In this document: in pieces, positions 123 through 18,125 of the stretch
How positions within the stretch are numbered: position 1 is the first letter of the stretch
Layout: the number at the start of each line of letters is the position of its first letter
NCBI GenBank assembly: GCA_022782265.1
Contig: JALFOM010000084.1
Location: forward strand, 1,961-65,960
Origin: Clostridiales bacterium
GTDB taxonomy: Bacteria; Bacillota; Clostridia; Oscillospirales; Oscillospiraceae
Direction: 5' to 3'
Length of the DNA: 64,000 nucleotides
The notes under the pieces: model-generated
The model's input: the letters and a program-made list of their open reading frames with translations, nothing else
The model's database searches: none
What the model was told of the DNA's origin: nothing
Program-made: the position numbers and the translations under genes

Positions 123-234
123 GCTTGCCTCGCTCTCCCTCTCTTTGAGTTTAACCCTTGCGGGAAGGCCAAGTCAAGTCTTGCGGTGAGGAACAAATAA
201 TGTTATAGTCTATGCGGAAAAGAGGTCATATACC

Positions 235-1500: not shown

Positions 1501-1515
1501 TGAAGGAGAGACGCT

Positions 1516-1926
1516 ATGCGCATCATGGCAATTGATTACGGCGACGCGAGGATCGGTCTGGCGGTTTCGGACCTGCTGGGCATGATCTGCGGCGAGGCCT
1601 GGACCATGGAGGAATGGAACATGGAGCGGGCGTCAAAACGCATCAGCGAAGAAGCGAAAAAGCGGGATGTGGGCACGCTGGTACTGGGCCTGCCCAAGAA
1701 CATGGACGGCAGTGAGGGGCCGAGAGCAGAAAAGAGCCGGGTCTTTCGGGAGCTGCTCATGGCCGACAGCGGTCTGCCCGTGGTTCTCTGGGACGAGCGG
1801 CGCAGCAGCATCGAGGCCCACGCCATCCTCCACGCCGGAGGCAAAAAGGAAAAGCAGCACCGCAAGACCGTGGACGCGGTGGCCGCAAGCCTGATCCTTG
1901 AGGGATATCTGGGAAGCATAAAATAA
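1516..1926 (+). CDS. ruvX: Holliday junction resolvase-like RNase H-fold protein RuvX/YqgF
   Basis: 136 aa. The N-terminus MAIDYGDARIGLAVSD is the YqgF signature. It follows folC by 15 nt. Confidence 0.9.
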   Translation: MRIMAIDYGDARIGLAVSDLLGMICGEAWTMEEWNMERASKRISEEAKKRDVGTLVLGLPKNMDGSEGPRAEKSRVFRELLMADSGLPVVLWDERRSSIEAHAILHAGGKKEKQHRKTVDAVAASLILEGYLGSIK

Positions 1927-1941
1927 GAAGGAGAGGGAAAA

Positions 1942-2766
1942 ATGAACAATACAATCAATTTAGACAACTTTTCTTTCAAAGCCTTTACCGCATCTCTGGG
2001 CCTTTCCAAAATCCTTCCCGCAGTGGTCACCATGGCCATATGCCTGCTGGCCATCTGGCTGCTGACCAAGCTGACGGACAAGCTGCTGGGCCGCTCCAAA
2101 AAGATCGACGGAACCCTGGGCGGCTTCATCCGCTCTGCCGTGCGGGGCGTCATGTGGATTTTGACGGTGATTATCGTGGCAGACGCCCTGGGCATCCCCA
2201 CCACCTCTCTGGTGGCCCTGGTCAGTGTGGTCGGCCTGGCTCTGTCCCTGTCGGTGCAGAATATCATGTCCAATCTCTTCTCCGGCATCACCCTTCTGAT
2301 CACCAAGCCCTTTGTGGCCGGGGATTTTGTGGACATCGCGGGAAAGACCGGCACCATCAAGAGCATGGGCCTGTTTTACACCATGATGGACACGGTGGAC
2401 AACATGGTCATCAACATCCCCAACGGCGATGTGACCGCCGCTTCCATCATCAATTACAGCAAGGAGGAGCTGCGCCGGGTGGACATGCTGTTCTGCGCCT
2501 CCTATGACGACGCTACCGAGGACGTAAAAGCCGCCATTCTGGAGGCCGCGGCGGAGGATGAGCGGATCAAAACCGAGCCCGCGCCCTTTATCGCCCTGAA
2601 CCGGTATAAGGACAGCTGCATTGAATATGTTGTCCGGCTCTGGTGCAAAAATTCCGACTACTGGGCTGTGTATTTCGGCATGAACGAGCGGGTGAGAGCC
2701 GCCTTTGACCGAAACGGCATCCGCATGACCTACGAGCACATGAACGTGCATATTGTTGAAAAATAA
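1942..2766 (+). CDS. mechanosensitive ion channel family protein (MscS type)
   Basis: 274 aa. N-terminal TM helices are followed by an MscS beta-domain-like segment GDFVDIAGKTGTIKSMGLFYTMMDT. Confidence 0.85.
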   Translation: MNNTINLDNFSFKAFTASLGLSKILPAVVTMAICLLAIWLLTKLTDKLLGRSKKIDGTLGGFIRSAVRGVMWILTVIIVADALGIPTTSLVALVSVVGLALSLSVQNIMSNLFSGITLLITKPFVAGDFVDIAGKTGTIKSMGLFYTMMDTVDNMVINIPNGDVTAASIINYSKEELRRVDMLFCASYDDATEDVKAAILEAAAEDERIKTEPAPFIALNRYKDSCIEYVVRLWCKNSDYWAVYFGMNERVRAAFDRNGIRMTYEHMNVHIVEK

Positions 2767-2770
2767 TGCC

Positions 2771-2808
2771 AAAAGCGGCCATTACAACGCTGTAACGGCC
2801 GCTTTTTT
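2771..2808 (+). terminator. rho-independent terminator after the MscS gene
   Basis: aaaagcggcc...ggccgctttttt: GC-rich stem GCGGCC/GGCCGC followed by a T6 run. Confidence 0.7.
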
Positions 2809-2912
2809 GCACATAAAATTGGAAAATTGAAATATTTATCCGCCTTTATTTTCTCTGCCGCCGCACATAATGATAGTGCGGTGATTTCACGCGGGAGGGA
2901 GAAAATTTTGGC

Positions 2913-3836
2913 ATGAAAAAAACGATCATTACAGCGCTGATGTGCCTGGCGCTGGTCTCTGCCATGCCCACGGCGGCCTATGCCATGGAGCTTGTGGTAG
3001 GCGGGCAGCCGATGGGAATACAGCTCAATACCGACGGGGTAATGGTGGCAGGGCTGGCCTCCATAGAGACGGCAGAGGGCAAGAAGTCCCCCGCCGCCGA
3101 CGCAGGCTTTCGCCAGGGCGACATCATTATCAAAATCGGCGAGAGAAAAGTGAGCTGCGCGGCGGATTTTATTGACGCGGTGGCGGCGCTGAACGGGCAG
3201 AGCGCCCCGGTCACGGCCCTGAGAGACGGCAAAACGGTGGAGATGAGGGTGCAGCCGGTACTGTCCGGCGAGAACCAGTGGATGCTGGGCATGTGGCTTC
3301 GCGACGGCATATCGGGTATTGGCACTTTGACCTTTTGCGATCCGGACTCCGGGATATACGGCGCGCTGGGCCACAGTGTGAATGACGAGGACAGCGGCGT
3401 GATCCTGCCTCTGGGCGACGGCAGCATCAGCAGCGCCCAGATTGTGGGCGTCGTGCCCGGATCTCAGGGCGCGCCGGGTGAGCTGACCGGTGCCACCGAC
3501 ACCGGCAAGATCCTGGGCAGCGTGGAAAAGAACACGGAAAAGGGGATTTACGGTCACAGCTATGTGTCCCTGGGCGGCAAGGTGGTGGAGACCGGCAAGA
3601 TTCAAACCGGCAGCGCCTCGATTATTTCCACCGTCAGCGGCAGCGAGCCGAAGGAATACGCGGTGGAGATCAACCGGGTGTACAGTGAAAGCGGCTGTAC
3701 CCGGGTGATGCTGACCGTCACAGACCCTGAGCTCTGCGCCGCCACCGGCGGCATCGTACAGGGCATGAGCGGCAGCCCTATCCTCCAGAACGGCTGCCTG
3801 GTGGGTGCGGTGACCCATGTGTCAGTACCCACATGA
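2913..3836 (+). CDS. spoIVB: SpoIVB peptidase (S55), 5' portion of a gene split by an insertion; reads into the element and stops after 4 foreign codons
   Basis: Signal/TM N-terminus, PDZ-like GFRQGDIIIKIGERKV, catalytic His context GALGHSV and Ser context GMSGSPILQNG. The ORF ends ...GAVTHVSVPT* directly after the 17-bp junction repeat. The conserved tail is found at 13290-13388. Confidence 0.9.
   Translation: MKKTIITALMCLALVSAMPTAAYAMELVVGGQPMGIQLNTDGVMVAGLASIETAEGKKSPAADAGFRQGDIIIKIGERKVSCAADFIDAVAALNGQSAPVTALRDGKTVEMRVQPVLSGENQWMLGMWLRDGISGIGTLTFCDPDSGIYGALGHSVNDEDSGVILPLGDGSISSAQIVGVVPGSQGAPGELTGATDTGKILGSVEKNTEKGIYGHSYVSLGGKVVETGKIQTGSASIISTVSGSEPKEYAVEINRVYSESGCTRVMLTVTDPELCAATGGIVQGMSGSPILQNGCLVGAVTHVSVPT
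3806..3822 (+). repeat. left junction core (attL) TGCGGTGACCCATGTGT
   Basis: Identical 17-mer at 13289-13305. The flanking bases differ on both sides (g/a before, c/t after). Confidence 0.9.
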
Positions 3837-4006
3837 TACCCACCAGAAAGAAAGCGTTTCCTCACACAAAATACATAGTCACGGAAAGCGAGAATACGGA
3901 AAAAGCAACAAGAGCGCGGCGTCACGGCTGCGCTCTTGCTGCTTCATTTGTCTGATTGCATGATTATGACCGCAAAAGACATACAATAATTTTTTGGATT
4001 TAATAG

Positions 4007-4035
4007 TTGACAAAAGCAACGAATTTTAGTAATAT
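4007..4035 (+). promoter_or_regulatory. sigma-A type promoter of the two-gene cassette
   Basis: TTGACA (4007-4012), 17-nt spacer, TAATAT (4030-4035), 28 nt upstream of the ATG at 4064. Confidence 0.55.
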
Positions 4036-4063
4036 AGGCGCAGAAAAATATTGGAGGTTTTGC

Positions 4064-4687
4064 ATGAACCATTTCGATCTGAAATCTGAACTGATTACGC
4101 CCGCTGTTGCTCTGAAGCTTGTCCCTGCATTTGTTTCCGCTTATGAACTTGCCGCCTCTGCGGCTAACGAAATTGAGTTTCTCGGTGGAGAACTGCGGTA
4201 TCAGATTCTTCCTCATCTCCGTAACTGGGCGGTCGAGTTTGAGCTGGACAGGCGGGCACGCTTGGGCTTGATTCCGTTTTCCAGTAGCTTTGAGAGCAAC
4301 TCAAGGAACAATCACAGGCATCTTGAACTTCGGAAAGGCAATGTACTTCTTACGATAAGCCAGACGCATCACTGCATCGATCTTCCGCGTGATTGCGTGT
4401 TTCGTAACGAGCACTGCGAAAATGGGCAGTATTGCTTGGAAGGCTTCGAGGAAAAAGTTGACACCGCCAGCAAAAACATTTATGCTATCCTTACGCATGG
4501 TCAGGGCAAATCTGCTCCGGGCTTCATCCTCTGTGGCGTCCCTGCTCCGGATATGAAAAAGTGGTCCCAGGCGGTCAACCTTTATGATGTTGTTCGCAAT
4601 CTTGAGCTCGTAGACGATGCGCCTGTTACCGAAGAAATCCACCTGGGGTACAGAGAGTCCGTGAAAAAGAATATTACCAATGCTTGA
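4064..4687 (+). CDS. hypothetical protein, 207 aa, no family recognised
   Basis: ATG at 4064 preceded by GGAGG with 7-nt spacing (the track start at 4007 is a TTG inside the promoter). This is a 624-nt open frame in comparatively AT-rich DNA. It lies 16 nt upstream of the XRE-ImmA gene, so an operon is likely. Confidence 0.7.
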   Translation: MNHFDLKSELITPAVALKLVPAFVSAYELAASAANEIEFLGGELRYQILPHLRNWAVEFELDRRARLGLIPFSSSFESNSRNNHRHLELRKGNVLLTISQTHHCIDLPRDCVFRNEHCENGQYCLEGFEEKVDTASKNIYAILTHGQGKSAPGFILCGVPAPDMKKWSQAVNLYDVVRNLELVDDAPVTEEIHLGYRESVKKNITNA

Positions 4688-4703
4688 TGGGAGGCTTTAG
4701 ACA

Positions 4704-5876
4704 ATGTCTAGGCAATCCAAAATTGCTCAAAAAGAGCCTTTGGTGCCGGAAAGGATACGAGAAGCTCGGCTTGCAAGGGGCATGTCGGCAATAGATCTAG
4801 CTAGCGCAATTGGAGTATCCAGGCAAGCAATTTCAAAATATGAGCTTGGAAGTGCCGAGCCTAGTTTTGCAGTCCTTGAGGCTCTTTCTAATACCCTTAG
4901 AATGCCCATTTCTTTCTTTTCAAAACCACCTGAGGCCGGAGCAAACCGGGGAACGACTTTTTACCGCAGCTTAAAAACCAACGCGGCACGTGCAAAAGAC
5001 ATTATGGCGACCAAGAGTGAGTGGGCTTCAGAAATAGCTAGTTTTGTAGAGCGAGGAATAGTTTTTCCTGATGTGGATATCCCGAGCCTTCCCGAAGAAT
5101 TCAATAATGCAGAAGCATTTTCTGACGAGGAAATAGAAGATATTGCGGAGTATGTTCGACGCTGCTGGAAGTTAGGGAATGGCCCTATCCCTAATATTTC
5201 GAGGACACTTGAGGCCCACGGGGTTGTAATCTCCACCATAAAAACCGGATGCGAAGAAACTGACGCTTGTTCATGCTTCATAGATTCTCGCCCATTCATT
5301 TTCCTGGATACACAAAAGGAGTGCGCCGTACGAACAAGATTTAATCTCTCACATGAACTTGGGCACCTTATTTTGCATGGCGGGATCTCGCAGAGTGACA
5401 TTGCAGACAAAAAAGAGCAAGATCGAATTGAAAAAGAAGCAAACCATTTTGCTTCGTGTTTTTTGCTCCCAAGAGAATCCTTTCTGCGAGATATCCGCTC
5501 AACATCGCTGACTTCCTTCCTGCCGTTGAAGAAAAAATGGAAGGTTTCTATTCAAGCTATGGTATATAGGTGCAAGGAACTTGGCGTTTTTTCAGATAGC
5601 CAGATGATCTATATACAAAAACAAATATCTGCAAGGCGCTGGAGAAAAAACGAACCGTTTGATGATGAGTGGCCCTGTGAAGAACCAATCGTACTAAGGA
5701 CTGCGGTCAATATGCTTGTTGACCGAGGAGACTTTTCTAAAGAGGATTTTAGTTCAATCCTTAGGTTCCCTGCGTTAGATATCGAGGAGATTTGCTCTTT
5801 GCCAGAAGGATTTCTAAGCGAAAGGGAACAGGATATGCCAATAATCATTGATTTTGCCACAAAAAGGCAGATCTAA
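4704..5876 (+). CDS. XRE-family HTH fused to ImmA/IrrE (COG2856-type) zinc metallopeptidase
   Basis: 390 aa. N-terminal HTH: IREARLARGMSAIDLASAIGVSRQAISKYELG. HEXXH motif: SHELGHLILH. Downstream EKEANHFASCFLLP supplies the third-ligand region typical of the ImmA/IrrE family. A C-terminal extension of roughly 100 aa follows. Confidence 0.85.
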   Translation: MSRQSKIAQKEPLVPERIREARLARGMSAIDLASAIGVSRQAISKYELGSAEPSFAVLEALSNTLRMPISFFSKPPEAGANRGTTFYRSLKTNAARAKDIMATKSEWASEIASFVERGIVFPDVDIPSLPEEFNNAEAFSDEEIEDIAEYVRRCWKLGNGPIPNISRTLEAHGVVISTIKTGCEETDACSCFIDSRPFIFLDTQKECAVRTRFNLSHELGHLILHGGISQSDIADKKEQDRIEKEANHFASCFLLPRESFLRDIRSTSLTSFLPLKKKWKVSIQAMVYRCKELGVFSDSQMIYIQKQISARRWRKNEPFDDEWPCEEPIVLRTAVNMLVDRGDFSKEDFSSILRFPALDIEEICSLPEGFLSEREQDMPIIIDFATKRQI

Positions 5877-5905
5877 CCGAAACAATACAATATTGTTGTC
5901 CTTTA

Positions 5906-5937
5906 GGGAAGCATGTTTAAGAAGCATGCTTCCCTTT
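5906..5937 (+). terminator. rho-independent terminator closing the two-gene cassette
   Basis: gggaagcatg ... catgcttccc stem followed by tttt. Confidence 0.65.
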
Positions 5938-5985
5938 TCGCGTAGAAGCTATTCCAATTTAATCACAAGGAGGCGGACAGAACGC

Positions 5986-6336
5986 ATGAGAGCACTGGTT
6001 GCTCAAGAAGGGAGCTTTTCTTTTTACCGGGTTCCCCGGCAGCTTATCAAGGGGCGGGAGTATCGTCCGCTGTCGCCCGCTGGGAAGCTGCTGTTTGCCC
6101 TGCTTCTCGACCGCGTGAGCCTGTCCGTAAAAAACGGCTGGCGGGACGGGGAGGGGCGGACATATGTGTATTACGCCGTCGCGGAGATCTGCGAGGACTT
6201 CGGCTGCAGCCGCGTCACCGCCGGAAAGCTGCTTTCGGAGCTGGAGCGGATCGGCCTGATCGAGCGAAAAAAGCAGGGCCAGGGCAAGCCGGATCGGATT
6301 TGCGTCCTGCAATTTTGCGCCAAACCGGACTTCTAG
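5986..6336 (+). CDS. replication initiator A (RepA_N) N-terminal domain only, probable remnant
   Basis: ATG at 5986 after AAGGAGG. The sequence FYRVPRQLIKGREYRPLSPAGKLLFALLLDRVSLSVKNGWRDGEGRTYVYY...GLIERKKQGQGKPDRI matches my memory of the Firmicute RepA_N winged-helix domain. At 116 aa it lacks the usual C-terminal half. Confidence 0.7.
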   Translation: MRALVAQEGSFSFYRVPRQLIKGREYRPLSPAGKLLFALLLDRVSLSVKNGWRDGEGRTYVYYAVAEICEDFGCSRVTAGKLLSELERIGLIERKKQGQGKPDRICVLQFCAKPDF

Positions 6337-6365
6337 ACTTCCCAAAAGGAAACTTCTAGACTTCC
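6329..6365 (+). repeat. tandem iteron-like repeats ACTTCTAGACTTCC x2 (23-bp register)
   Basis: Copies at 6329-6342 and 6352-6365. The related 11-mer CCCGAAGTCTG occurs at 6371-6381 and 6516-6526, and an AT-rich stretch lies at 6390-6500. Confidence 0.45.
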
Positions 6366-6539
6366 GCTTTCCCGAAGTCTGGAGGTAAAAATCTTTTACA
6401 TCAAGAAACCAAAAACTTATGCCCTAATAAGACTGATAGAAAGAAACTGATAAAATTATACTGAGTGATCTATTCATCCATCTATCTATCATTACTACTA
6501 ATCTGCGCGTCAAAACCCGAAGTCTGAAAGGCGCAAATG

Positions 6540-6556
6540 TGTCTCACCGTGAGACA
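6540..6556. repeat. 17-bp palindrome TGTCTCAC-C-GTGAGACA (copy 1)
   Basis: Read directly. Followed by agttttctctttt. The flanks aaatg...(a)gtttt are shared with copy 3. Confidence 0.85.
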
Positions 6557-6598
6557 AGTTTTCTCTTTTCATGCGACAAAAGGAGAAAATACGCACCG

Positions 6599-6664
6599 TG
6601 TTAAGCAAGTATGGCATTTGTTAAACACAAACGCCCTTGTTAGGGGATGACCCCTAAAACCCCG
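6599..6664 (+). repeat. left arm of a ~65-nt imperfect inverted repeat
   Basis: Contains AAGCAAGTATGGCATTTG (6603-6620), the exact reverse complement of 10652-10669. Similarity extends through caaacgcc and a ttagggg...cctaa hairpin. Confidence 0.75.
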
Positions 6665-6717
6665 CGCAGCGGAACAAACAGACGCCTTTTGGAGAAACAC
6701 CGAACCAAGATGTGCCG

Positions 6718-6746
6718 TTGACAATTAGCGTAATTATGCATATAAT
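6718..6746 (+). promoter_or_regulatory. consensus sigma-A promoter of the Phd/RelE operon
   Basis: TTGACA (6718-6723), 17-nt spacer, TATAAT (6741-6746). AAGGAGG RBS before the ATG at 6771. Confidence 0.65.
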
Positions 6747-6770
6747 AATGCTAAGCAAGGAGGTGGCGAG

Positions 6771-7058
6771 ATGCCAAATATTCGTCCTGTTTCCGATCTG
6801 AGAAATCATTTCGCTGAGATTACCAAAGACGCTCAGCTCAGCGGTGAGCCGATCTTCCTGACCAAGAACGGCGTCGGCTCCATCGTTGTCATGAGCATGG
6901 AGAGCTACGAGCAGAACCGCTATGACAGCATGGTCTACGACAAGCTGCGCGAGGCGGAGCTGCAGGCTGCCAGCACGACGGAGCGTTTGAGCCATGCCGA
7001 TGTTATGGCGAAAGCGCGTGCGTTTCTGAGCGGTGCGGAGGAGCAAAAGCGTGCATAA
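6771..7058 (+). CDS. type II antitoxin, Phd/YefM family
   Basis: 95 aa. The N-terminus MPNIRPVSDLRNHFAEITKDAQLSGEPIFLTKNGVGSIVVMSMESYE is the Phd/YefM fold signature. It overlaps the downstream toxin gene. Confidence 0.85.
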   Translation: MPNIRPVSDLRNHFAEITKDAQLSGEPIFLTKNGVGSIVVMSMESYEQNRYDSMVYDKLREAELQAASTTERLSHADVMAKARAFLSGAEEQKRA

Positions 7059-7359
7059 GATCGTTTATTTGCCGCTGGCGGAGAGCGACTTGATGGACGC
7101 GCTGGGCTATATTGCCTACACGCTGGACGCGCCAAAAGCCGCCCGCGATCTGCTGGCCGAGTTTGACGAGACGGTACAGCGCATCGCGGAGTTCCCCTAC
7201 GCCCACGAGCTTTACCGGACAGACCGCCCGATGAAAGACGAGATCCGCAAGGTGCCGGTCAAGAACTATGTGCTCTATTATGCCGTCTTTCAAGACCGCG
7301 TAGAGATTCGCCGCTTTCTCTACGGCAAGAGAGACAGAAGCAGAATCGATGAAGAATAA
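7051..7359 (+). CDS. type II toxin, RelE/ParE family
   Basis: GTG at 7051 overlaps the antitoxin stop by 8 nt. About 102 aa with a DEIRKVPVKNYVLYYAVFQDRVEIRRFLYGKRD ParE/RelE-like C-terminus. Confidence 0.8.
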   Translation: MHKIVYLPLAESDLMDALGYIAYTLDAPKAARDLLAEFDETVQRIAEFPYAHELYRTDRPMKDEIRKVPVKNYVLYYAVFQDRVEIRRFLYGKRDRSRIDEE

Positions 7360-7528
7360 TGCAACACAGAAGATGAAGCTGCCCGCCGTCCCCGTCCCGG
7401 ACATGAGCAATCTCACGAAGGAGCAGTTGAAAGCGGAAATCGAGAAGGGCTTTGCTGACACTGCCGCCGGACGAGTAACGCCCGCTGCCGAGGTGTTTGC
7501 CGAGCTGCGGGGGAAAGACACGCAGTAA
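7349..7528 (+). CDS. small antitoxin-like ORF (59 aa)
   Basis: ATG at 7349 overlaps the RelE stop. The C-terminus LKAEIEKGFADTAAGRVTPAAEVFAELR resembles the tail of RelB/ParD-type antitoxin-like proteins (from memory). Below the ORF-track size cut-off. Confidence 0.4.
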   Translation: MKNNATQKMKLPAVPVPDMSNLTKEQLKAEIEKGFADTAAGRVTPAAEVFAELRGKDTQ

Positions 7529-7538
7529 ACCCATAATC

Positions 7539-7555
7539 CGTTTCACCGTGAAACG
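7539..7555. repeat. 17-bp palindrome CGTTTCAC-C-GTGAAACG
   Basis: Read directly. The flank aatccgtttcac is shared with the copy at 10579-10603. Confidence 0.8.
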
Positions 7556-7583
7556 AATTTACAAACGAATAGCTATCAACCGG

Positions 7584-7610
7584 AAACTTGTCTCACCGTG
7601 AGACAAGTTT
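7584..7610. repeat. 27-bp palindrome AAACTTGTCTCAC-C-GTGAGACAAGTTT (copy 2), terminator-like and possible oriT inverted repeat
   Basis: 13-bp perfect arms followed by ccttttttc. It sits immediately upstream of the mobC RBS. Confidence 0.8.
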
Positions 7611-7630
7611 CCTTTTTTCATGGAGGTGTT

Positions 7631-7939
7631 ATGAGAGAACGCAATCATTTTATCGGCCTTTGGCTAAATAATGAGGAATACGCCCATCTGCGAGAGCAAT
7701 GCGAGATCACGGGTTTACCAACCAGCGTACTGATCCGCAATGCCCTCGCTGGGGTACAGCTCCGGCAAAGACCACCCGGCGAATACGCGGGCCTGCTGCG
7801 GGCTCTATCGGCCATCGGCAACAACGTCAACCAAATCGCGCACTGGGCCAACGCCAAAAAGAGCATCCAAGAGGCGGAGATCCGGCAGGCGGTTCTGCTG
7901 GCAAACAAGGCGTGGGAGTTGGTAAAGGAGACGTTGTAA
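7631..7939 (+). CDS. mobC: plasmid mobilisation relaxosome protein MobC (orphan, no relaxase follows)
   Basis: ATG at 7631 after GGAGG. The sequence LNNEEYAHLREQCEITGLPTSVLIRNALAG...LSAIGNNVNQIAHWANA matches the MobC RHH plus IGNNLNQIAR motif. Confidence 0.85.
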   Translation: MRERNHFIGLWLNNEEYAHLREQCEITGLPTSVLIRNALAGVQLRQRPPGEYAGLLRALSAIGNNVNQIAHWANAKKSIQEAEIRQAVLLANKAWELVKETL

Positions 7940-7942
7940 ATG

Positions 7943-7959
7943 TGTCTCACCGTGAGACA
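7943..7959. repeat. 17-bp palindrome TGTCTCAC-C-GTGAGACA (copy 3)
   Basis: Starts 4 nt after the mobC stop. 7938-7965 is a direct repeat of 6535-6562 with one mismatch. Confidence 0.85.
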
Positions 7960-8114
7960 GGTTTTGACCGAGCTTCTGATGTCACTCAAAGCTCAAACTC
8001 TTCTTATTTGCGCTGTCGTGATATAATAAAGAAAAAACTTTTCCTGTTTTTGTGACACTTTGCTCAAAAAATGGATTTATATAAGTGAGGGCCCTTAAAC
8101 AAAGGAGACGAGGT

Positions 8115-8687
8115 ATGAACGACAGAGATATAGTCAATTTATACTGGCAGCGTTCAGAGCAGGCCATAGCGGAAACCGAGCGGAAATACGGGAGTTACTG
8201 CCACATTATCGCATATAACATCCTCGAAAACAGCGAAGATTCCGAGGAGTGCGTCAATGATACCTGGATGAGCGCATGGAACGCAATGCCGGACAAGCGC
8301 CCGGACCGGCTCAGCCCCTTCCTTGCCCGGATCACACGCAACTTCGCTCTGACAAAGATCGTCCGTCGCACGGCGAAGAAACGGGGCGGCGGTGAAGCAG
8401 AGCTTGCGCTGGAGGAGCTGGACGAGTGTCTTTCCTCCGGCTACGATCTGGAAAAGGAAATCGAAGATCGGGAGCTGAGTCGCGCCATAGACGAATTTAT
8501 AGGGCAGCTCGGTGAAGAAGAACAGCTTGTATTTGTCAGCCGGTATTGGTTCGTGGCGACCGAGCGGGAGATCGCGGAAAAGCTGGGCCTGAGCCGCAGT
8601 GGCGTCGCCGCCATGCTGAAAAGGACAAGAGGCAAGTTGAAGACATACCTGTTGATGGAGGGCTTATGTACAATTCGGAACGAATGA
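8115..8687 (+). CDS. sigma-70 family (ECF-like) RNA polymerase sigma factor, element copy
   Basis: ATG at 8115 after AAAGGAG. The region-2-like segment is IVNLYWQRSEQAIAETERKYGSYCHIIAYNILENSEDSEECVNDTWMSAW and region 4 is REIAEKLGLSRSGVAAMLKRTRGKL. By eye it is more than half identical to the chromosomal copy at 23649-24206. Confidence 0.85.
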   Translation: MNDRDIVNLYWQRSEQAIAETERKYGSYCHIIAYNILENSEDSEECVNDTWMSAWNAMPDKRPDRLSPFLARITRNFALTKIVRRTAKKRGGGEAELALEELDECLSSGYDLEKEIEDRELSRAIDEFIGQLGEEEQLVFVSRYWFVATEREIAEKLGLSRSGVAAMLKRTRGKLKTYLLMEGLCTIRNE

Positions 8688-9736
8688 TGAAAGCCGTTGG
8701 AGACATTTCCGATGATAAGATCGAGAAAACCGGCCGCGCGCTGGGCTATCAAAAAGAGAGACACAGCATGTCTCGCGCCCCCGTTCGGATGGGGAGATGG
8801 CTGTCCATTGCTGCGGTGGTTGCGCTGATCCTCGCGCTGGGTGTGACGGCCTATGCAATCTATACGCACTGGTCGCGAGGCATGGAGCAACGACTTCCCG
8901 CCACAGAGGAAGAAAAAGAACTGGCAGAGCAGAGCGGCCTGTCCGACACTTCCCATACTGTCAGCGCCACAGCCAACGGCGTGACGATCTCTGTGGAGCA
9001 GACGATCATCGACGGAGATTCCGCCGAGATTGCCCTGCGGATCGAGGGTTGGCAGCTTGACCGGGAACAGGAACTTGACGCCACCGTTTGGGGCTGGATG
9101 CCTACCTTCAACGGAGAAGGAGCGCCTGCGATGGGCGGCAGTTTCGTGGAAGACCGCGACGCAAATGACCGTGTTTTCATTATTGCGGCTGACGGCTCGA
9201 TGGAATTCGATATCTGGGCCAGAGCAGGAGACAAGCTAGGTACACTTTCCGGAAAAGAAATCCGTATTTGCATTGAAAGTTTAGGCGTTGGAGGTCTTAA
9301 AAGCGAGTATCAGCCGTTGGTGGAAGGCCCCTGGGAACTCGTTTGGACACCCAGTAGCAACAGCGAACTGCTGACCGTACAGCCTGATGCAGACCTCGGT
9401 GATACCGGGATCAAGTTGGTTTCCGCGGAGGTTGGCCCGATTTCTGCGAAGGTGGCGCTACAGCTTCCCGAACTCTGGAAGGGCTACGAAACCTTGGAGC
9501 ACCACGATCTCCAACTCGTGGGCGTGCGGCTGACCGACGGGACGGTGCTGACCAACATCTTTGGGCCGCCCACGCAGGAGGGCTACGCGGATATCGACAA
9601 TTTGATCCTTGAGCTGGACTACTCTTCGCATCAGATCCTCCAGCCGGAGCAGGTGGAGGCACTGATTTTTGCCAGCAACTTCCCTTGGGCGAGAACATTG
9701 ACAGACATCGATCTGATCATTATTCCAATCAAATAG
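8666..9736 (+). CDS. single-pass membrane protein co-translated with the sigma factor (putative anti-sigma factor)
   Basis: ATG at 8666 within GGAGGGCTTATG, the same overlap context as 24200. N-terminal cytoplasmic segment, TM helix WLSIAAVVALILALGVTAYAI, then a ~270-aa extracytoplasmic domain. Confidence 0.6.
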   Translation: MYNSERMMKAVGDISDDKIEKTGRALGYQKERHSMSRAPVRMGRWLSIAAVVALILALGVTAYAIYTHWSRGMEQRLPATEEEKELAEQSGLSDTSHTVSATANGVTISVEQTIIDGDSAEIALRIEGWQLDREQELDATVWGWMPTFNGEGAPAMGGSFVEDRDANDRVFIIAADGSMEFDIWARAGDKLGTLSGKEIRICIESLGVGGLKSEYQPLVEGPWELVWTPSSNSELLTVQPDADLGDTGIKLVSAEVGPISAKVALQLPELWKGYETLEHHDLQLVGVRLTDGTVLTNIFGPPTQEGYADIDNLILELDYSSHQILQPEQVEALIFASNFPWARTLTDIDLIIIPIK

Positions 9737-9760
9737 TAAGTATTGGAACACATAGAGATC

Positions 9761-9949
9761 ATGATCATAGAACAAGAACGAAAGTCATTATGGCTCCCAT
9801 GTCCAAAGTGTGGAGCCAGGACAAAGATCAAAATCTATGAGGACACCGTACTTCTGAATTTCCCCTTATACTGTACCAAGTGCAAGGAAGAAACCAAACT
9901 CGGCGTGATAAAATTCAAGATCGTAGTTAGCGACGAGCCAGACGCTTAA
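9761..9949 (+). CDS. cysteine-rich KTR domain (zinc-ribbon) small protein
   Basis: CPKCG...NFPLYCTKCK...EPDA pattern, as I remember for the Cys-rich KTR family on Firmicute mobile elements. The start is uncertain (TTG 9743 or ATG 9761). Confidence 0.7.
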   Translation: MIIEQERKSLWLPCPKCGARTKIKIYEDTVLLNFPLYCTKCKEETKLGVIKFKIVVSDEPDA

Positions 9950-9954
9950 AGCGC

Positions 9955-9990
9955 AGAGCCTGCTACTCCGTGAGTGGAGAAGCAGGCTCT
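9955..9990 (+). terminator. hairpin after the KTR gene
   Basis: agagcctgct ... agcaggctct (10-bp arms) followed by ttctgtcgtt. The T tract is weak. Confidence 0.45.
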
Positions 9991-10208
9991 TTCTGTCGTT
10001 ATTGGGCATTCAGCACAGGAGTTTTCCCTTCCCCCCGCAGGGCTGTTGGAGAAGCGTGTTTGAAATACCGCTGATTTGGCCTTATCAGTGAGATTCGGCA
10101 CCGTTGCTATAGCTTCGGTTTCGTTTTGAGATCAGGCACCGTCTATGTTCAAAAGCGAAAAGATAGTATTGCTTATTGACCTACACATTCAGAAAGCGGA
10201 GGACAGAT

Positions 10209-10580
10209 ATGTACAGCTTTCATTCTGAAAACAACATGTCCGGCGTGACGCCGGAGGAGATTGCGCGGCTGCTGCGCAGCATCGGAGCATCCGGCAGATT
10301 GGTCGGCTTCTATTACACTGTCTATATCGTGTACACGATCCTGCAAAAGCCGGATGAGTATTTCTGGATCACCAAATGCGCCTACCCGGAAACGGCCCGG
10401 TATTTCAAGGTCAGTCCGTCCTCCGTGGAGCACACGATCCGCACGCTGATCGCTTCGGTGTGGAATCGCCGCAATCATTCCGACATCAACCGCGTGGCCG
10501 GGATCGAGCTAGAGAAGCCGCCCACTAACAGCGAGTTTATCGATATACTGGTCGCCTATCTCCGCTACGGTGTGGATTAA
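10209..10580 (+). CDS. stand-alone Spo0A C-terminal (DNA-binding effector) domain protein, no receiver domain
   Basis: ATG at 10209 after GCGGAGG with 6-nt spacing. The sequence ITKCAYPETARYFKVSPSSVEHTIRTLIASVWNRRN...EKPPTNSEFIDILVAYLR parallels the Spo0A segment ...[32 protein letters not shown]...KPTNSEFIA that I recall. Confidence 0.8.
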   Translation: MYSFHSENNMSGVTPEEIARLLRSIGASGRLVGFYYTVYIVYTILQKPDEYFWITKCAYPETARYFKVSPSSVEHTIRTLIASVWNRRNHSDINRVAGIELEKPPTNSEFIDILVAYLRYGVD

Positions 10581-10603
10581 TCCGTTTCACCATGAAACGG
10601 ATT
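10579..10603 (+). terminator. hairpin AATCCGTTTCA-cca-TGAAACGGATT after the Spo0A_C gene
   Basis: 11-bp arms and a 3-nt loop, followed by ttcgc. Member of the GTTTCAC/GTGAAAC palindrome family. Confidence 0.55.
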
Positions 10604-10610
10604 TTCGCAT

Positions 10611-10675
10611 CGGGTGTTAGGTGGCGCCCCTAAAAGCGGCGTTTGAACTATCAAATGCCATACTTGCTTATAACA
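10611..10675 (-). repeat. right arm of the ~65-nt imperfect inverted repeat
   Basis: CAAATGCCATACTTGCTT (10652-10669) is the exact reverse complement of 6603-6620. Extended similarity was aligned by hand. Confidence 0.75.
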
Positions 10676-10732
10676 TGCGGCTTCCGTCGAGAAACGGATA
10701 AAAGGATTAAATAATGTAGTAATCATTCCGTA

Positions 10733-10960
10733 CTATCTCGAACGAAAAGAGGCCACTTTTCCCGATACTTGCGGTAAAATGGTGTTAAACCAAATAGAGC
10801 TGGCAGATACAATGGTGCCGAATAGAATCAAATGTCCGGCTATACGCTCGGGAAGAAATCTGCCGCAAACGACTTCTTTTTGTCGGGACTTGATTTCTTT
10901 TGCGAATTTTCGTTTTTTCAGCGCCTGATTTTGTTTTAGATATATGGAGAGAAGTCCCAA
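10733..10960 (-). CDS. possible small membrane protein (75 aa)
   Basis: TTG start preceded by GAGGAAGG with about 5-nt spacing. A basic N-terminus is followed by one hydrophobic helix, IAGHLILFGTIVSASSIWFNTIL. No homology recognised. Confidence 0.3.
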   Translation of the reverse strand: MGLLSIYLKQNQALKKRKFAKEIKSRQKEVVCGRFLPERIAGHLILFGTIVSASSIWFNTILPQVSGKVASFRSR

Positions 10961-11276
10961 AGGACACCTTCCTCGAAAACCGAATAGGGCAGGCAGATAC
11001 GTTCTGCTTGTGGGGAGCCGGGCAGCGGGTGCGCCAGGATGCCGATCAACCGAGAGGTGAAGATATCAGGCTGAGCGAGCAACACCGCGCTGTATGCAGC
11101 CGATGGCAAGGCTGAGGGCCACGATCCGCGAGCAGAGATAATGATACCTACGTTGATGGCACGTCACAGAGTCAAACGTCCCGCCATGAGCATGGAGGGA
11201 GGCACGAAACGATCCTACGGAGCGGCCCGCCCCGCCGCCGTCTGACCCTCGCCTTTGAAAAACCGTGAATCTTACG

Positions 11277-11313
11277 ATCCGCACTACACAAGAGTGCGGA
11301 TTTTGTCTTTTTT
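11277..11313 (+). terminator. strong rho-independent terminator in a gene-poor stretch
   Basis: atccgcact-acacaag-agtgcggat followed by tttgtctttttt. No convincing upstream CDS. Confidence 0.7.
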
Positions 11314-11318
11314 AGTCG

Positions 11319-11345
11319 AAATGTGTTTCACGGTGAAACACATTT
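11319..11345. repeat. 27-bp perfect palindrome AAATGTGTTTCAC-G-GTGAAACACATTT
   Basis: 13-bp arms. The half sites GTTTCAC/GTGAAAC equal parS half sites, but one extra central base is present. Confidence 0.85.
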
Positions 11346-11402
11346 TTCAAGCCCAAATTTGGCATACTAAACCATATCCACACACGAAAGGAGCGGGAGC
11401 TT

Positions 11403-11582
11403 ATCATCGTTTCCACGATTAAAAACGAAAACGCCGTGGTGCAGATCCACGACGATTATATTGAGGATATCGACGAGAACGCGGCGCGGGTGAAGGAGAT
11501 ATTGACCAAAGCCCGCAAGCGCCGCAAGGCGGCCGCGAAGCCCGCCGCCGCACAACAAAAGTCTTACGCGCCGCAGCTATAA
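11403..11582 (+). CDS. small basic-tailed ORF directly upstream of the recombinase, lacking a canonical start codon (RDF candidate or decayed gene)
   Basis: AAAGGAG at 11387-11393 lies 9 nt before an in-frame ATC at 11403. The first canonical start is GTG at 11436. Translation: IIVSTIKNENAVVQIHDDYIEDIDENAARVKEILTKARKRRKAAAKPAAAQQKSYAPQL*. A short hairpin plus T-run follows at 11570-11597. Confidence 0.35.
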   Translation: MIVSTIKNENAVVQIHDDYIEDIDENAARVKEILTKARKRRKAAAKPAAAQQKSYAPQL

Positions 11583-11620
11583 TCTGCGGCCTTTTTCTAT
11601 AAATTGCCACGCCTGAAAAT

Positions 11621-11649
11621 TTGACAGGCTATGGCCGATTTGAGATAAT
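11621..11649 (+). promoter_or_regulatory. sigma-A-like promoter of the recombinase gene
   Basis: TTGACA (11621-11626), 17-nt spacer, GATAAT (11644-11649). AAAGGAGG RBS, then ATG at 11671. Confidence 0.5.
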
Positions 11650-11670
11650 ATCGACAGAAAGGAGGCCCCC

Positions 11671-13212
11671 ATGGAGCAATATCTTGAATATCTCCGTAAA
11701 TCTCGCTTTGACCGTGATTATCTGGATTTGAGTGTGGAGGAAACGCTGAAACGGCACCAGGAGATTCTGGACAGACTGGCGAGAGACAGAGGATTCTATA
11801 TTGCGAAGGTGTATCGGGAGGTCGTGTCCGGCGAGTCCATCGCCGCCCGGCCCGAGGTACAGAAGATGCTGGAAGAAGTCTCTTCCGGGATCTATACCGG
11901 GGTGCTCGTTGTCGATGTGGAGCGTCTGGCCCGCGGCAACAGCGCGGATCAGGCATACATCAGCCAGATCTTTCAGTTCTCCGACACCAAGATCATCACC
12001 CCCGCCAAGACCTACGACCCGACGGACGAATTCGACCAGGAGTATTTCGAGTTCGGCCTGTTCATGAGCCGGAGAGAGTACAAGACCATCAACCGACGCC
12101 TTGTCAGAGGCCGTCAGAGCTCCGCCAGTGAAGGAAAATACGTCGGCAGCATCGCGCCCTATGGCTACGACCGGGTGAAGCTGCAGGGTGAGAAGGGCTA
12201 TACGCTCGAACCAAATCCGGCAGAGGCGGAGGCTGTGCGGCGGATGTTCGAGCTGTACGTCCGGCGGCAGGGTACGAAAATGATCGCCAATGAGCTGAAC
12301 GACCGCAAAATCCCCACGCGCCACGGCGGGAAGTGGGATGCCTCGACGGTGGGCAACATCCTCATAAACCCCGTCTATCTGGGCAAGATCAAGCGCGGCT
12401 ACGTCAAAGAGACCAAGCGCCTGGACGAGCGGGGCAATGTGGTGTCCAGCTACAGGCATTGCAAGGACGTGGAGGACTACGACCTGTACGAGGGCCGCCA
12501 CCCCGCGCTGATCGACGACGCGCTCTTTGAAAAAGCGCAGAAGATACGCAAGGAAAACTACGTCGGCCCGAAGGTAAAAAAGCAGTACGAGCTTGTCAAT
12601 CCCTTCGCGGGCGTGATGGTCTGCGCGGAGTGCGGAAAGCCTATCGGCCGCAAGGCCTCCTCGAAGAACCACCCCAACCCGCCCCGCGTGGCCTGTACCA
12701 ATCCTCACCACTGTCACAACCGCTCCGCGAGCTTTGCGCTGGTGGAAACGGAAATCCTGAGCGCGCTGCGGAGCTGGCTGGACGGCTACAGGATCAAGCT
12801 GGACACCGTGGGCTTTGCGGAGGATATAGCGGACTGTCGGCGGCAGCTGGAACGGATCGCAGCGGAGCGGGAGAAGCTGAAAGCGCAGCTTGACCGGGCC
12901 TACACACTGGTGGAGCAGGGCGTTTACAGTTTGGAGGTCTTCGGGGAACGGTGCGACAAGCTGACGCGAGAGCTGAATGATCTGCAGGAGCAGCAGGACG
13001 CCGCAGAGCAGAGTTTGGCGCAGTATGAGGCCGACGAGAGCAGCCAGCAGGAGATCATTCCGCAGACGGAGACGCTCCTGGCAAGCTACGACGAGTTGAC
13101 CGTACAGGAGCGCAACGAGCTCTTGAAGACCATCCTTTACAAGATTGAATACTACCGGGGAGAGGATGGGATCGTGTCCATTGACCTGTATCCCAGGCTC
13201 CCTAAAGCATAA
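11671..13212 (+). CDS. large serine recombinase (resolvase/invertase N-domain, recombinase domain, zinc ribbon, coiled coil)
   Basis: 513 aa. The catalytic-Ser context YLRKSRFD resembles the YLRRSRQD I recall for SPbeta SprA. Recombinase domain: GYTLEPNPAEAEAVRRMFELYV...WDASTVGNILINPVYLGK. Zinc ribbon: CAECGKPIG...CTNPHHCHN. A C-terminal coiled coil is present. Confidence 0.95.
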   Translation: MEQYLEYLRKSRFDRDYLDLSVEETLKRHQEILDRLARDRGFYIAKVYREVVSGESIAARPEVQKMLEEVSSGIYTGVLVVDVERLARGNSADQAYISQIFQFSDTKIITPAKTYDPTDEFDQEYFEFGLFMSRREYKTINRRLVRGRQSSASEGKYVGSIAPYGYDRVKLQGEKGYTLEPNPAEAEAVRRMFELYVRRQGTKMIANELNDRKIPTRHGGKWDASTVGNILINPVYLGKIKRGYVKETKRLDERGNVVSSYRHCKDVEDYDLYEGRHPALIDDALFEKAQKIRKENYVGPKVKKQYELVNPFAGVMVCAECGKPIGRKASSKNHPNPPRVACTNPHHCHNRSASFALVETEILSALRSWLDGYRIKLDTVGFAEDIADCRRQLERIAAEREKLKAQLDRAYTLVEQGVYSLEVFGERCDKLTRELNDLQEQQDAAEQSLAQYEADESSQQEIIPQTETLLASYDELTVQERNELLKTILYKIEYYRGEDGIVSIDLYPRLPKA

Positions 13213-13288
13213 GTTTGTATCCCCCAGTCACGGGCCGCTGTGCGTCCCGCGACAGCCCCCTTTAGGCAAGGGGGCCCTGTAGCCATCA

Positions 13289-13305
13289 TGCGGTGACCCA
13301 TGTGT
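13289..13305 (+). repeat. right junction core (attR) TGCGGTGACCCATGTGT
   Basis: Identical to 3806-3822. Confidence 0.9.
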
Positions 13306-13388
13306 TTGTCAACGATCCCACCAGGGGCTACGGCATCAGCATCCAGGACATGCTGGAGACAGCGGAGATTGAGGACAAGGCGGCGTAA
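13290..13388 (+). pseudogene. spoIVB: 3' fragment of spoIVB (last 32 codons plus stop), separated from its 5' part by the element
   Basis: My translation is AVTHVFVNDPTRGYGISIQDMLETAEIEDKAA*. The first five codons duplicate 3807-3821. There is no start codon or RBS of its own. Confidence 0.85.
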
Positions 13389-13490: not shown

Positions 13491-13557
13491 GTGCTTTAGC
13501 GCCAATCAATATGGTGCACCGGAAAACATTCCGGTGCACCTTTTGCCGGGGGCCATT

Positions 13558-14124
13558 TTAAAGAGGAAGGAAAGGTTTCAAGGTTTCTTTGACTTTGTCG
13601 GCGTCGGGAAGGGCATACATCACAAATCTCTCGCACATGCCGGTATTGTCGTCCGTAATCGCGCCGCTGAGCATGGCAGCTCTCCGCTTCCAGGGCTTCG
13701 CCTTTATGGCGTACTCACCGCAGAGCAGAGAGGTATGTCCGTCCTCATCCCGGTCCAGCTTTGCCGCGCTGATGGCGGAATACTCAACCGACTTGGCACT
13801 GTCCGTCAGGATGAGCAGGCGCTTGTCTGTGATGGCGTAAAGCGCGCGCTTTCTGATCTTTGAAGCGTCAAGCAGTCCGCGCAGAATGATAAAGATGCCG
13901 CAGGCTGCCACAATGACCAGCACAGCGGGCTTCAGCGGTGCATTGTTTATGCCGGCAAGAATCACATAGGCCACGCAGACGGCAATGGTCACCAGGGCCG
14001 TGATGATCCCGCTTCGGATAAAGGGGCTTTTATGTGTCTTATCCAGAGGCTCAAAGGGCTCCGGGCGTCCGCTCCAAAGCAGTTTTTCCTCTTCTCTCAG
14101 CGATTCTTTCAACAGCTCTTCCAT
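13558..14124 (-). CDS. membrane-flanked bacterial PH domain (DUF304-like) protein
   Basis: 188 aa. The EKLLWSGRP motif is followed by two TM helices and then a PH-like C-terminal domain. Confidence 0.65.
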   Translation of the reverse strand: MEELLKESLREEEKLLWSGRPEPFEPLDKTHKSPFIRSGIITALVTIAVCVAYVILAGINNAPLKPAVLVIVAACGIFIILRGLLDASKIRKRALYAITDKRLLILTDSAKSVEYSAISAAKLDRDEDGHTSLLCGEYAIKAKPWKRRAAMLSGAITDDNTGMCERFVMYALPDADKVKETLKPFLPL

Positions 14125-14228
14125 AGCTACCTCCTTATGTCTCCCGGTTACCCGGGATCTGCCCTTATTGTAGCAGAGGGGCCGGTAAAGATGGGGTTAA
14201 GGAGGGATGAAGGGCTGTAAATGTTCCG

Positions 14229-14939
14229 CTAAGAGTCGCCCTCGATCATGCGGTAGCCTACGCCGACTTCCGTAAAGATGTATTGGGGCTCTGCCGGGTT
14301 TTTCTCGATCTTCCGGCGGATGTTGGCCATGTTCACCCGGAGGATCTGGTTGCTCCCCTTACTCTGAGGGCCCCACAGCTCTTTCATAATAAAATCATAG
14401 GTCAGCACCTTTCCGGCGCACTTGCCTAAAAGGGCCACAATACGAAACTCATTCTGGGTCAAATGGGCGTTTTCGCCCCGGATCAGCACCTGGTGCTTGT
14501 CATAGTCTATGGTCAGGTCCCCGGCGGTAAATTTGCCGGTGCTGGCAATGGCGCTGTTGGCAAGGCCGGTGCGGGTGTGGCGGATGGCCACCCTGATCCG
14601 GGCCAGCAGCTCCGCCGCGCCGAAGGGCTTGGTGATGTAATCGTCCGCCCCCTTCTCCAGGGCCTGCACCTTATCCCGCTCATAGCTTCTGGCCGAGACC
14701 ACCACGATGGGGATCTGTGTCCACTGGCGTACCGTTTCAATAATTTCCATGCCGTCCATATCCGGCAGGCCCAGATCCAGCACCACCAGATCCGGGCAGT
14801 GAGAGCTGATCATGGAAAAGGCCTCGCTGCCGGAATGGGCCACGATCACGTCAAAGCCGTTTGCCGTGAGGATCGCCCGGATAAAGCCGGAAATACTTTT
14901 TTCGTCCTCGACCACGAGAACCTTATCCTTTATGGTCAT
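14229..14939 (-). CDS. kdpE: OmpR-family response regulator, KdpE-like
   Basis: Start at MTIKDKVLVVEDE (14939). The track ORF is extended upstream through the kinase gene. Receiver D-box is DLVVLDLGLPDMDG. The wHTH LTQNEFRIVALLGKCAGKVLTYDFIMKELWGP...TEVGVGYRM is close to E. coli KdpE as I recall it. Confidence 0.8.
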   Translation of the reverse strand: MTIKDKVLVVEDEKSISGFIRAILTANGFDVIVAHSGSEAFSMISSHCPDLVVLDLGLPDMDGMEIIETVRQWTQIPIVVVSARSYERDKVQALEKGADDYITKPFGAAELLARIRVAIRHTRTGLANSAIASTGKFTAGDLTIDYDKHQVLIRGENAHLTQNEFRIVALLGKCAGKVLTYDFIMKELWGPQSKGSNQILRVNMANIRRKIEKNPAEPQYIFTEVGVGYRMIEGDS

Positions 14940-14943
14940 TGCT

Positions 14944-16014: not shown

Positions 16015-16098
16015 GGTTTTGATTATAGCATAGTAAGCCGTTAAGCCGCCGCTAAGAAATTAACAGCGCACGAAGCTTTCCTTCGTGCGCTGTCTGTA

Positions 16099-18122: not shown

Positions 18123-18125
18123 TGC

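Follow-up and report, generated by a model that had tools for sequence, protein, structure and literature searches.

The 64,000-nucleotide stretch of DNA analysed here (the window; all positions refer to it) carries a spoIVB gene, coding for a Peptidase_S55 protease, that is interrupted by a 9,483-bp element bounded by short direct repeats and carrying a large serine recombinase gene at its right end. The locus is composed of the following parts, "att" denoting attachment sites and "P" and "P'" their element-borne arms:

2913-3822, + strand: 5' part of spoIVB, native codons 1-303 (Pfam PDZ_2/PDZ_6 and Peptidase_S55).
3806-3822, + strand: attL, copy of the 17-bp direct repeat TGCGGTGACCCATGTGT (sequence match).
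3823-3844, + strand: P' arm CAGTACCCACATGATACCCACC, conserved at all left junctions.
3823-13305, + strand: intervening element, 9,483 bp, non-phage integrative mobilizable, bounded by attL and attR and absent from contigs L070-L073.
11671-13212, + strand: large serine recombinase, 513 aa (Pfam Resolvase, Recombinase and Zn_ribbon_recom; PHROG 95, integrase, E 6e-101).
13279-13305, + strand: P arm and attR copy of the repeat (TGCGGTGACCCATGTGT, 13289-13305; sequence match).
13306-13388, + strand: 3' part of spoIVB, 27 native codons and stop, in frame once rejoined.

The open reading frame (ORF) of the 5' part (2913-3836, + strand, 307 aa) covers positions 2-195 of the 210 in the Peptidase_S55 profile (E 6e-59) and runs past 3822 into the element, where SVPT and a stop are added. 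The split falls at the His-Val codons of spoIVB, directly after Thr-His-Val in the truncated product, which keeps 303 native residues, gains these four foreign ones and loses 27 native residues, not 25 as counted in an earlier note on this DNA. Joining 2913-3822 to 13306-13388 in silico yields a 330-aa protein that is, over its full length, 97% (P0001), 94% and 88% identical to uninterrupted orthologues of 330 aa. Four sister-strain contigs (L070-L073) carry an unbroken spoIVB with an empty site and are colinear with the window over 84-3822 and 13556-18367; their neighbouring genes also match, with folC, ruvX and mscS upstream, and an ORF of unknown function and a KdpE/KdpD-like pair downstream. 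Since these empty-site contigs are colinear with both flanks, the insertion is real and precise. The interruption of a genuine spoIVB orthologue by a recombinase-bounded element, as read in the earlier note, is thus borne out by the 17-bp repeats, the in-frame rejoining and the empty sister sites. The SpoIVB proteins of the window's species form one 90%-identity cluster of 237; among the 15 members listed, 12 have 330 aa and two, one of them the window's protein, have the 307-aa form. Empty sites far outnumber filled ones in this species. Proteins of the window are recorded at NCBI as MCI6487728.1 and MCI6487741.1, from a Clostridiales bacterium metagenome-assembled genome; the read set SRR14369281 carries the window's allele, and close relatives are named Candidatus Limivicinus.

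The recombinase gene ends 77 bp ahead of the P arm. Its product reaches no more than 41% identity to recombinases in phage and plasmid collections, and is ~28% identical to SprA of SP-beta. The attP site, reconstructed from both ends of the element, displays imperfect inverted arms, ATCATGnGGnnAC and GTACCCACATGAT, centred on GT. In 22 attR sites from related elements (see below), the element-derived sequence is invariant as far as CAT-GT, and the host sequence differs between loci from the next base on (GTG, GTC and GTA among others). Because the host side varies immediately past CAT-GT, we infer from these alignments that crossover takes place at the GT of the His-Val codons, i.e. the GT within the CAT-GT of the repeat. 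On the - strand, the attR region (13285-13312) can also be read as a promoter of sigma-70-like form, TTGACA-16-CATGAT, directed into the element; this likeness is probably fortuitous, arising from the att sequence itself.

We then asked how widely this arrangement occurs, using recombinase-based scans of species-representative genomes and metagenomes. More than 20 loci carry recombinases 89-98% identical to that of the window, and a spoIVB 3' fragment lies directly downstream in every one of them. Across 22 right junctions, at least 14 distinct host C-terminal peptides are found, all intact. Four SpoIVB proteins, 63-65% identical to that of the window, end at the same codon with the tails SVST, SVTT or SVPT, and the same element backbone lies within spoIVB at their loci wherever the contig is long enough. 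We compared the window with four loci (L002, L004, L007 and L008) in more depth. The recombinase is 97% identical in all of them, the RepA_N protein 83-93% and MobC 87-95%; the Phd/ParE pair is 98-100% identical where the module is present, L008 having a different toxin, and the Spo0A_C protein is 89% identical in L007 and L008 and lacking in L002 and L004. The host proteins at the same loci are 52-66% (SpoIVB), 72% (FolC) and 60% (MscS) identical. The element proteins are therefore far more alike than the host proteins, which argues for horizontal movement: judged from these identities, the family is spreading horizontally among rumen and gut Oscillospirales, over at least 14 host lineages. 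The earlier note had treated the window as a single case; that spoIVB is the target of a whole family changes the framing of the original observation.

More distant recombinases occupy the same His-Val site, at 83% (L033), 61% (L012 and L036, from Agathobaculum) and 59% (L075 and L080) identity. In L033 (719-3200), L075 (10001-12700) and L080, the element is inserted the other way round, placing the recombinase gene and the spoIVB 5' part tail-to-tail; insertion at this site does not depend on the element being co-oriented with spoIVB. The structural reading is thus secure: the recombinase of this mobile family serves a single target, the GT within the spoIVB His-Val codons (GAVTH/V, the slash marking the break). 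Another insertion site exists in the same gene, at the catalytic-serine motif GIVQGM/SGSP in Agathobaculum (L064:10001-20900; L065-L068). The occupant there is an unrelated larger element that encodes MobC, a relaxase, RepA_N/DUF6017 and a helicase-like protein of 1,951 aa. P0007, a SpoIVB of 306 aa from the species of the window (protein sequence only), diverges at this same motif.

In Agathobaculum, the element at the His-Val site is found in a different configuration. Compared with L069, a locus from the same species without the element, the host DNA of L036 (1-12400) maps in three pieces at 99.5-100% identity: the end of an energy-coupling-factor (ECF)-transporter gene in forward orientation, the spoIVB promoter and 5' part inverted, and the spoIVB 3' end, spo0A and polA again forward. 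The first two pieces are separated by 159 bp from the left end of the element, including attL; the last two are separated by ~10 kb of element, at the end of which are a small ORF, the recombinase and attR. It follows from this three-piece mapping that attL and attR are inverted repeats ~11 kb apart. Inverted junctions are also present in L074, L076-L079, L081 and L092-L101; besides L036, six of the eight contexts retrieved display junctions of the inverted arrangement, and the truncated protein is found on 53 contigs. The assemblies with this arrangement include that of a cultured isolate, A. ammoniilyticum Sanger_34 (GCA_025567315.1), and the recombinase-spo0A junction is also found on a 3.2-Mb contig (GCA_900291975.1, a single-contig record). 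We considered an assembly artefact as the origin of the inversion and rejected it, as there are no flanking inverted repeats and the junctions recur in independent assemblies, including that of the isolate. From the layout of the sites, recombination between attL and attR in Agathobaculum would flip the segment, restoring spoIVB beside spo0A and leaving an internal attP, with the element kept. We also noted two 392-aa proteins from ENA contigs (P0230 and P0231), in which ~285 N-terminal residues of a SpoIVB of Agathobaculum type run directly into the Spo0A C-terminal domain; a deletion between the adjacent spoIVB and spo0A genes seems to be their origin.

The proposed catalytic residues of SpoIVB all lie upstream of the break and are retained in the truncated product. 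The lost tail, however, includes VNDPxxGYG, the best-conserved block of the family, which is identical in the B. subtilis SpoIVB structure 9lnf. In the AlphaFold model of the 97% identical orthologue (mean pLDDT 89), this tail is predicted with high confidence to form a strand (310-315) followed by a helix (316-323). Because the insertion removes a conserved and structured tail of 27 residues, the germ-line copy of spoIVB is most likely inactive, and we infer from the model that SpoIVB function would be lost or severely impaired. The possibility raised earlier that the 307-aa protein is still active thus has the retained catalytic residues in its favour, but the loss of a conserved, folded tail makes it unlikely.

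The regions upstream of spoIVB and of the recombinase gene contain the following putative signals and a small ORF:

2863-2876, + strand: -10-like box GCACATAATGATAG, ~37-50 nt upstream of the spoIVB start, conserved in orthologues.
11361-11370, + strand: -10-like box GGCATACTAA upstream of the small ORF (sequence pattern).
11403-11582, + strand: small ORF, ~59 aa from ATC (48 aa from a GTG at 11436), candidate recombination directionality factor.
11570-11590, + strand: terminator after the small ORF, checked in the window family.
11621-11649, + strand: sigma-A-type recombinase promoter, TTGACA-17-GATAAT with TG extension, 11 of 12 consensus positions.

All family members keep the recombinase promoter, which in the lineages at 61% and 59% identity reads TTGACA-17-TATACT. 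An ORF of 55-64 aa with the motif IV.IHDD lies just ahead of the recombinase gene in four of four lineages (window, L033, L036 and L075). Because it remains paired with the recombinase across 59-97% divergence, this small ORF is a natural candidate for the directionality factor. Upstream of spoIVB, the -10-like box is conserved as GC(A/G)CATA(A/C)TGA in four orthologous regions and as TGGCATAGTAAAT in Agathobaculum; it fits the -10 consensus of the forespore sigma-F/G (CATnnTA) at 6-7 of 7 positions, which hints at a forespore sigma factor for this box. The box ahead of the small ORF has the shape of the Agathobaculum spoIVB box, and the pattern GGCATANTAA matches once in 64 kb, at this very place (0.24 matches expected). 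Both the spoIVB and the small-ORF boxes are closer to the forespore CATnnTA than to the mother-cell CATACAnT or CATAnnnTA. The corresponding small-ORF boxes are GGCATAATAA in L033, GAATA-17-GATAATA in L036 and GGGGAATACTG in L075. Taken at face value, this layout reads as a constitutive integrase accompanied by a sporulation-gated, possibly forespore-gated, factor, the evidence on sigma type being weak.

The remainder of the element encodes the following features:

4007-4687, + strand: ORF of unknown function, 226 aa, accessory cargo (no Pfam or PHROG match).
4704-5876, + strand: regulator with HTH_3 and Peptidase_M78 domains (ImmA/IrrE-type), accessory cargo (Pfam).
5848-6336, + strand: protein with a RepA_N replication-initiator N-terminal domain, backbone (Pfam E 3e-21; 83-96% identical across the family).
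6718-6746, + strand: perfect TTGACA-17-TATAAT promoter ahead of phd/parE (promoter scan).
6771-7359, + strand: Phd antitoxin (6771-7058) and ParE toxin (7033-7359) (Pfam; 98-100% identical across hosts).
7598-7939, + strand: MobC/NikA-like relaxosome accessory protein (Pfam; 87-95% identical across the family).
8085-9736, + strand: extracytoplasmic-function (ECF) sigma factor (8085-8687) and DUF4179 anti-sigma-like ORF (8546-9736, start uncertain), variable cargo (Pfam).
10176-10580, + strand: stand-alone Spo0A_C DNA-binding domain, without receiver domain (Pfam E 3e-24).

A Cys_rich_KTR protein is also encoded. All genes of the element are on the + strand, and its G+C content is 0.52 (0.518) versus 0.58-0.59 in the flanks. 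The cargo varies along the family: a copy of the 226-aa ORF (99.6% identical) is present in L030 only, and the HTH/ImmA-type regulator in L001 and L030, most members being without it. The identity of the ECF sigma factor ranges from 33% to 99% (in comparisons including L002, L004, L008, L024 and L026) versus a backbone steady at 97-100%, which suggests module exchange at the sigma/anti-sigma cassette. Another ECF sigma gene lies in the host region, at 23427-24206. The Spo0A_C protein is 88-93% identical in L007, L008, L011, L023-L026, L029 and L031, and a distant version of it is carried by the Agathobaculum element; such a stand-alone domain might interfere with, or sense, the initiation of sporulation. 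The idea that Spo0A boxes regulate the recombinase or the small ORF was dropped, the candidates being only 6-of-7 near matches found by eye; the element contains no exact TGTCGAA box, nor does the window show any enrichment of the motif.

A 17-bp palindrome, TGTCTCACCGTGAGACA, is found in four copies in the element versus 0 expected (6540-6556, 7589-7605, 7943-7959 and 11324-11340), with the pattern TGT(C/T)TCAC(C/G)GTGA(G/A)ACA. Its positions coincide with module boundaries: one copy precedes phd, two flank mobC and one precedes the small ORF. Related elements carry it too; it could be a terminator, an operator or an oriT-related site. Between the Spo0A_C gene and the small ORF, 1.1 kb without long ORFs contains a sub-threshold match to the Rfam pemK RNA (11138-11220; 29.9 bits versus a gathering score of 34.8), besides which no known RNA family was found in the element. 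No capsid, tail, terminase, lysis or packaging family was matched in the element (Pfam on the long ORFs; PHROGs on six proteins, namely the recombinase, RepA_N, Spo0A_C, the 226-aa ORF, Cys_rich_KTR and the small ORF), and the functional PHROG matches are limited to integrase and replication-loader families. Neither a relaxase nor a coupling protein was found in the element with Pfam. Its gene content best fits a small integrative mobilizable element, and not a prophage. In the surrounding host DNA, the 64-kb window holds no second S55 gene, and no sporulation-specific family was matched in the 20 long ORFs scanned between 16 and 37 kb, half of which lack any family match. The split spoIVB of the window's host does not adjoin spo0A, unlike that of Agathobaculum.

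The choice of target gene raises a difficulty that the earlier note had put forward. The elements skin (in sigK), SP-beta (spsM), vfbin (spoVFB), vrin (spoVR) and gin (gerE) have all been described in mother-cell genes, and their maintenance is explained by excision limited to the mother cell (Abe 2014, Abe 2017), in agreement with the note's statement on known developmentally excised elements. Its second premise, that spoIVB is expressed in the forespore in model organisms, holds equally: B. subtilis spoIVB is under sigma-F/sigma-G control, and the C. difficile paralogues belong to the forespore regulons, CD0783 to that of sigma-F and CD1213 to that of sigma-G. By orthology, the interrupted gene would be a forespore gene as well. 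A C. difficile spoIVB2 mutant fails to form mature spores, the two paralogues being non-redundant. In the literature searched, spoIVB is nowhere paired with "intervening element" or attB. How spoIVB could be rejoined without loss of the element from the germ line is thus a real paradox and a legitimate question. Four ways out had been proposed: (a) loss or attenuation of sporulation, (b) an active truncated protein, (c) a reversible rearrangement or one confined to one chromosome copy, and (d) a different compartment for spoIVB or a second paralogue. All four are candidates at best: (a) is possible, (b) is unlikely as seen above, and reversible rearrangement (c) alone has gained support, because of the vegetative recombinase promoter, the forespore-like box of the small ORF, the conserved toxin-antitoxin pair and the inverted att sites in Agathobaculum.

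A scheme built on these features would run as follows. The recombinase would be made constitutively from its sigma-A-type promoter and would, alone, drive integration (attP x attB). Rejoining of spoIVB by attL x attR recombination would require the small upstream ORF as directionality factor, which, from its own promoter with a box like that of spoIVB, would be made in sporulation, probably in the forespore. The element would then be excised in the forespore and spoIVB expressed; the non-replicating circle would be carried along in the spore, and the recombinase alone would reinsert it after germination, the ParE/Phd pair penalising cells that lose the element. In Agathobaculum, the same logic would be fixed as an inversion, such that the element cannot be lost and the integrase alone flips the segment back. 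We put forward this factor-gated rejoining of spoIVB in sporulation, probably in the forespore, followed by reinsertion (or inversion in Agathobaculum), as a tentative reading whose chance we place somewhat below even. The stronger claim, that it is the first programmed forespore, i.e. germ-line, DNA rearrangement in an endospore former, with spoIVB as a reversible recombinase-gated developmental switch worked by excision and reinsertion in Limivicinus-type hosts such as that of the window and by a flip of ~11 kb in Agathobaculum, we regard as unlikely.

Several observations weigh against this scheme. There is no convincing -35 upstream of the spoIVB box, nor at the small ORF, and a -10 box by itself is weak ground for assigning a sigma factor. 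Pfam and PHROGs place the small ORF in no family and, in the window family, it seems to start at a non-canonical codon (ATC/ATT) 7-9 nt past a GGAG ribosome-binding site, which could keep the level of its protein very low; the Agathobaculum homologue has an ATG at the equivalent position. The flipped state is unseen in Agathobaculum, where 23 contigs with an intact gene have native flanks and 24 contigs with the recombinase are split; such split-only assemblies would be expected if the flip were a transient step of development, and equally if it never occurred. A collection of 15 billion proteins lacks the exact rejoined protein. The attP-junction pattern CATCATGCGGTGACSCATGTGTCAGTNNNNACATGAT had no match in metagenome and viral contigs, a search that needed an exact match in assemblies and is thus uninformative. 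The element is rare within the window's species, as expected of a recent selfish insertion, and the second, unrelated family in spoIVB may mean that the gene is simply a tolerated target.

A rival view is that of a purely selfish insertion, which would use the spoIVB codons as a safe, shared landing site in a gene useless during growth. Excision would then occur only for transfer or by chance, and carriers would be sporulation-defective or reliant on rare revertants, a defect tolerated in gut and rumen lineages transmitted without spores. Recent cross-genus horizontal spread, low prevalence in the window's species, insertion in both orientations and a mobilization gene, RepA_N and toxin-antitoxin genes typical of selfish elements all fit such a view, as do the second family breaking spoIVB at its catalytic-serine codons and assemblies that display neither excised nor flipped forms; the Agathobaculum inversion could be a tolerated dead-end lock. 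On the other hand, the whole recombinase clade (59-97% identity) is faithful to one site, and the spoIVB 5' and 3' fragments are intact wherever examined. Moreover, relatives that lack the element have well-conserved spoIVB and spo0A genes, so that sporulation seems to be under selection, the small ORF has its own sporulation-like box in four lineages, and the interrupted sporulation genes studied in spore-formers are all rejoined developmentally (Abe 2014, Abe 2017). We consider a purely selfish insertion only slightly less likely than the factor-gated scheme.

The interruption could also be harmless, if the 307-aa protease still works or if a second S55 paralogue elsewhere compensates. The catalytic residues (His, Ser, Thr/Asp) and the PDZ domain are kept upstream of the break, C. 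difficile has two forespore paralogues, SpoIVB and SpoIVB2, and, as the gene is not beside spo0A here, it may be orthologous to either of them. However, VNDPxxGYG, identical from B. subtilis to this lineage, is lost with a tail that forms a confident strand and helix of the protease domain, the 64-kb window is without a second S55 gene, and the C. difficile paralogues do not replace one another; we hold a harmless interruption to be quite improbable. Even less probable, in our view, is that spoIVB is transcribed in the mother cell in this lineage and that the element is excised only from the mother-cell chromosome, as for skin or SP-beta. Sigma-E and sigma-K promoters do share the CATA core found in the spoIVB -10 box, and SpoIVB acts in the intermembrane space, presumably reachable from either cell. 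Yet both boxes fit the forespore consensus better, no sigma-E/K-type -35 was recognised, and the forespore control of spoIVB is conserved in Bacilli and Clostridia.

The spoIVB element shares with skin, SP-beta, vfbin, vrin and gin its position within the coding sequence of a sporulation gene, short bounding repeats, a large serine recombinase gene at one end and a rejoining that would make the ORF whole again; it also resembles gin in not being a prophage. It differs from this class in that spoIVB is a forespore-line gene in both models, so that the logic of a disposable mother-cell genome does not apply, in being a recently and widely transferred family and not a strain-fixed relic, and in that its developmental excision is known only as a proposal. 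With respect to the mother-cell feature, the element probably departs from the known sporulation gene-intervening elements.

Clostridial mobilisable elements of the Tn4451/TnpX type also carry a large serine recombinase, and the target choice of TnpX is loose. The spoIVB element resembles them in its small size, its large serine recombinase as sole integrase, a putative mobilization function without conjugation apparatus, variable cargo and an expected circular intermediate. In contrast, it uses a strict single site in one conserved gene, has the MobC accessory protein only, with neither relaxase nor resistance gene, and carries a Spo0A_C-only protein and an ECF sigma factor as cargo. Listeria phi10403S in comK and Streptococcus pyogenes SpyCIM1 in mutL are phage or phage-like elements that respond to the phagosome or to growth phase. 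The cycle proposed here, in which excision, expression and reintegration would restore a germ-line host gene with the element kept, is similar to theirs, whereas its trigger would be a developmental compartment. Known invertases are small serine or tyrosine recombinases that act on identical inverted repeats. As in such invertible switches, the inverted sites of Agathobaculum flank a segment, here of ~11 kb, whose recombination would toggle spoIVB between split and intact; unlike in these switches, the sites are the attL and attR of a large serine integrase, one state is observed, and each direction of the flip would need a different set of proteins (integrase with factor, or integrase alone).

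All textbook elements that interrupt genes in spore formers can be cut out safely because the mother cell leaves no descendants and its genome is discarded; a widespread family residing in a forespore gene would break this rule. With their defined att sites and candidate partner protein, the four recombinase lineages provide material for studies of recombinases and directionality factors, and the paradox is directly testable with the cultured A. ammoniilyticum Sanger_34 and with GCA_900291975.1, which carry the inverted arrangement. If the element is a selfish knock-out, it would amount to a common and transferable loss of sporulation in gut and rumen anaerobes, with a bearing on host-adapted Firmicutes; if spoIVB is rebuilt and the element then reinserted in the germ line, it would represent a new kind of reversible developmental switch.

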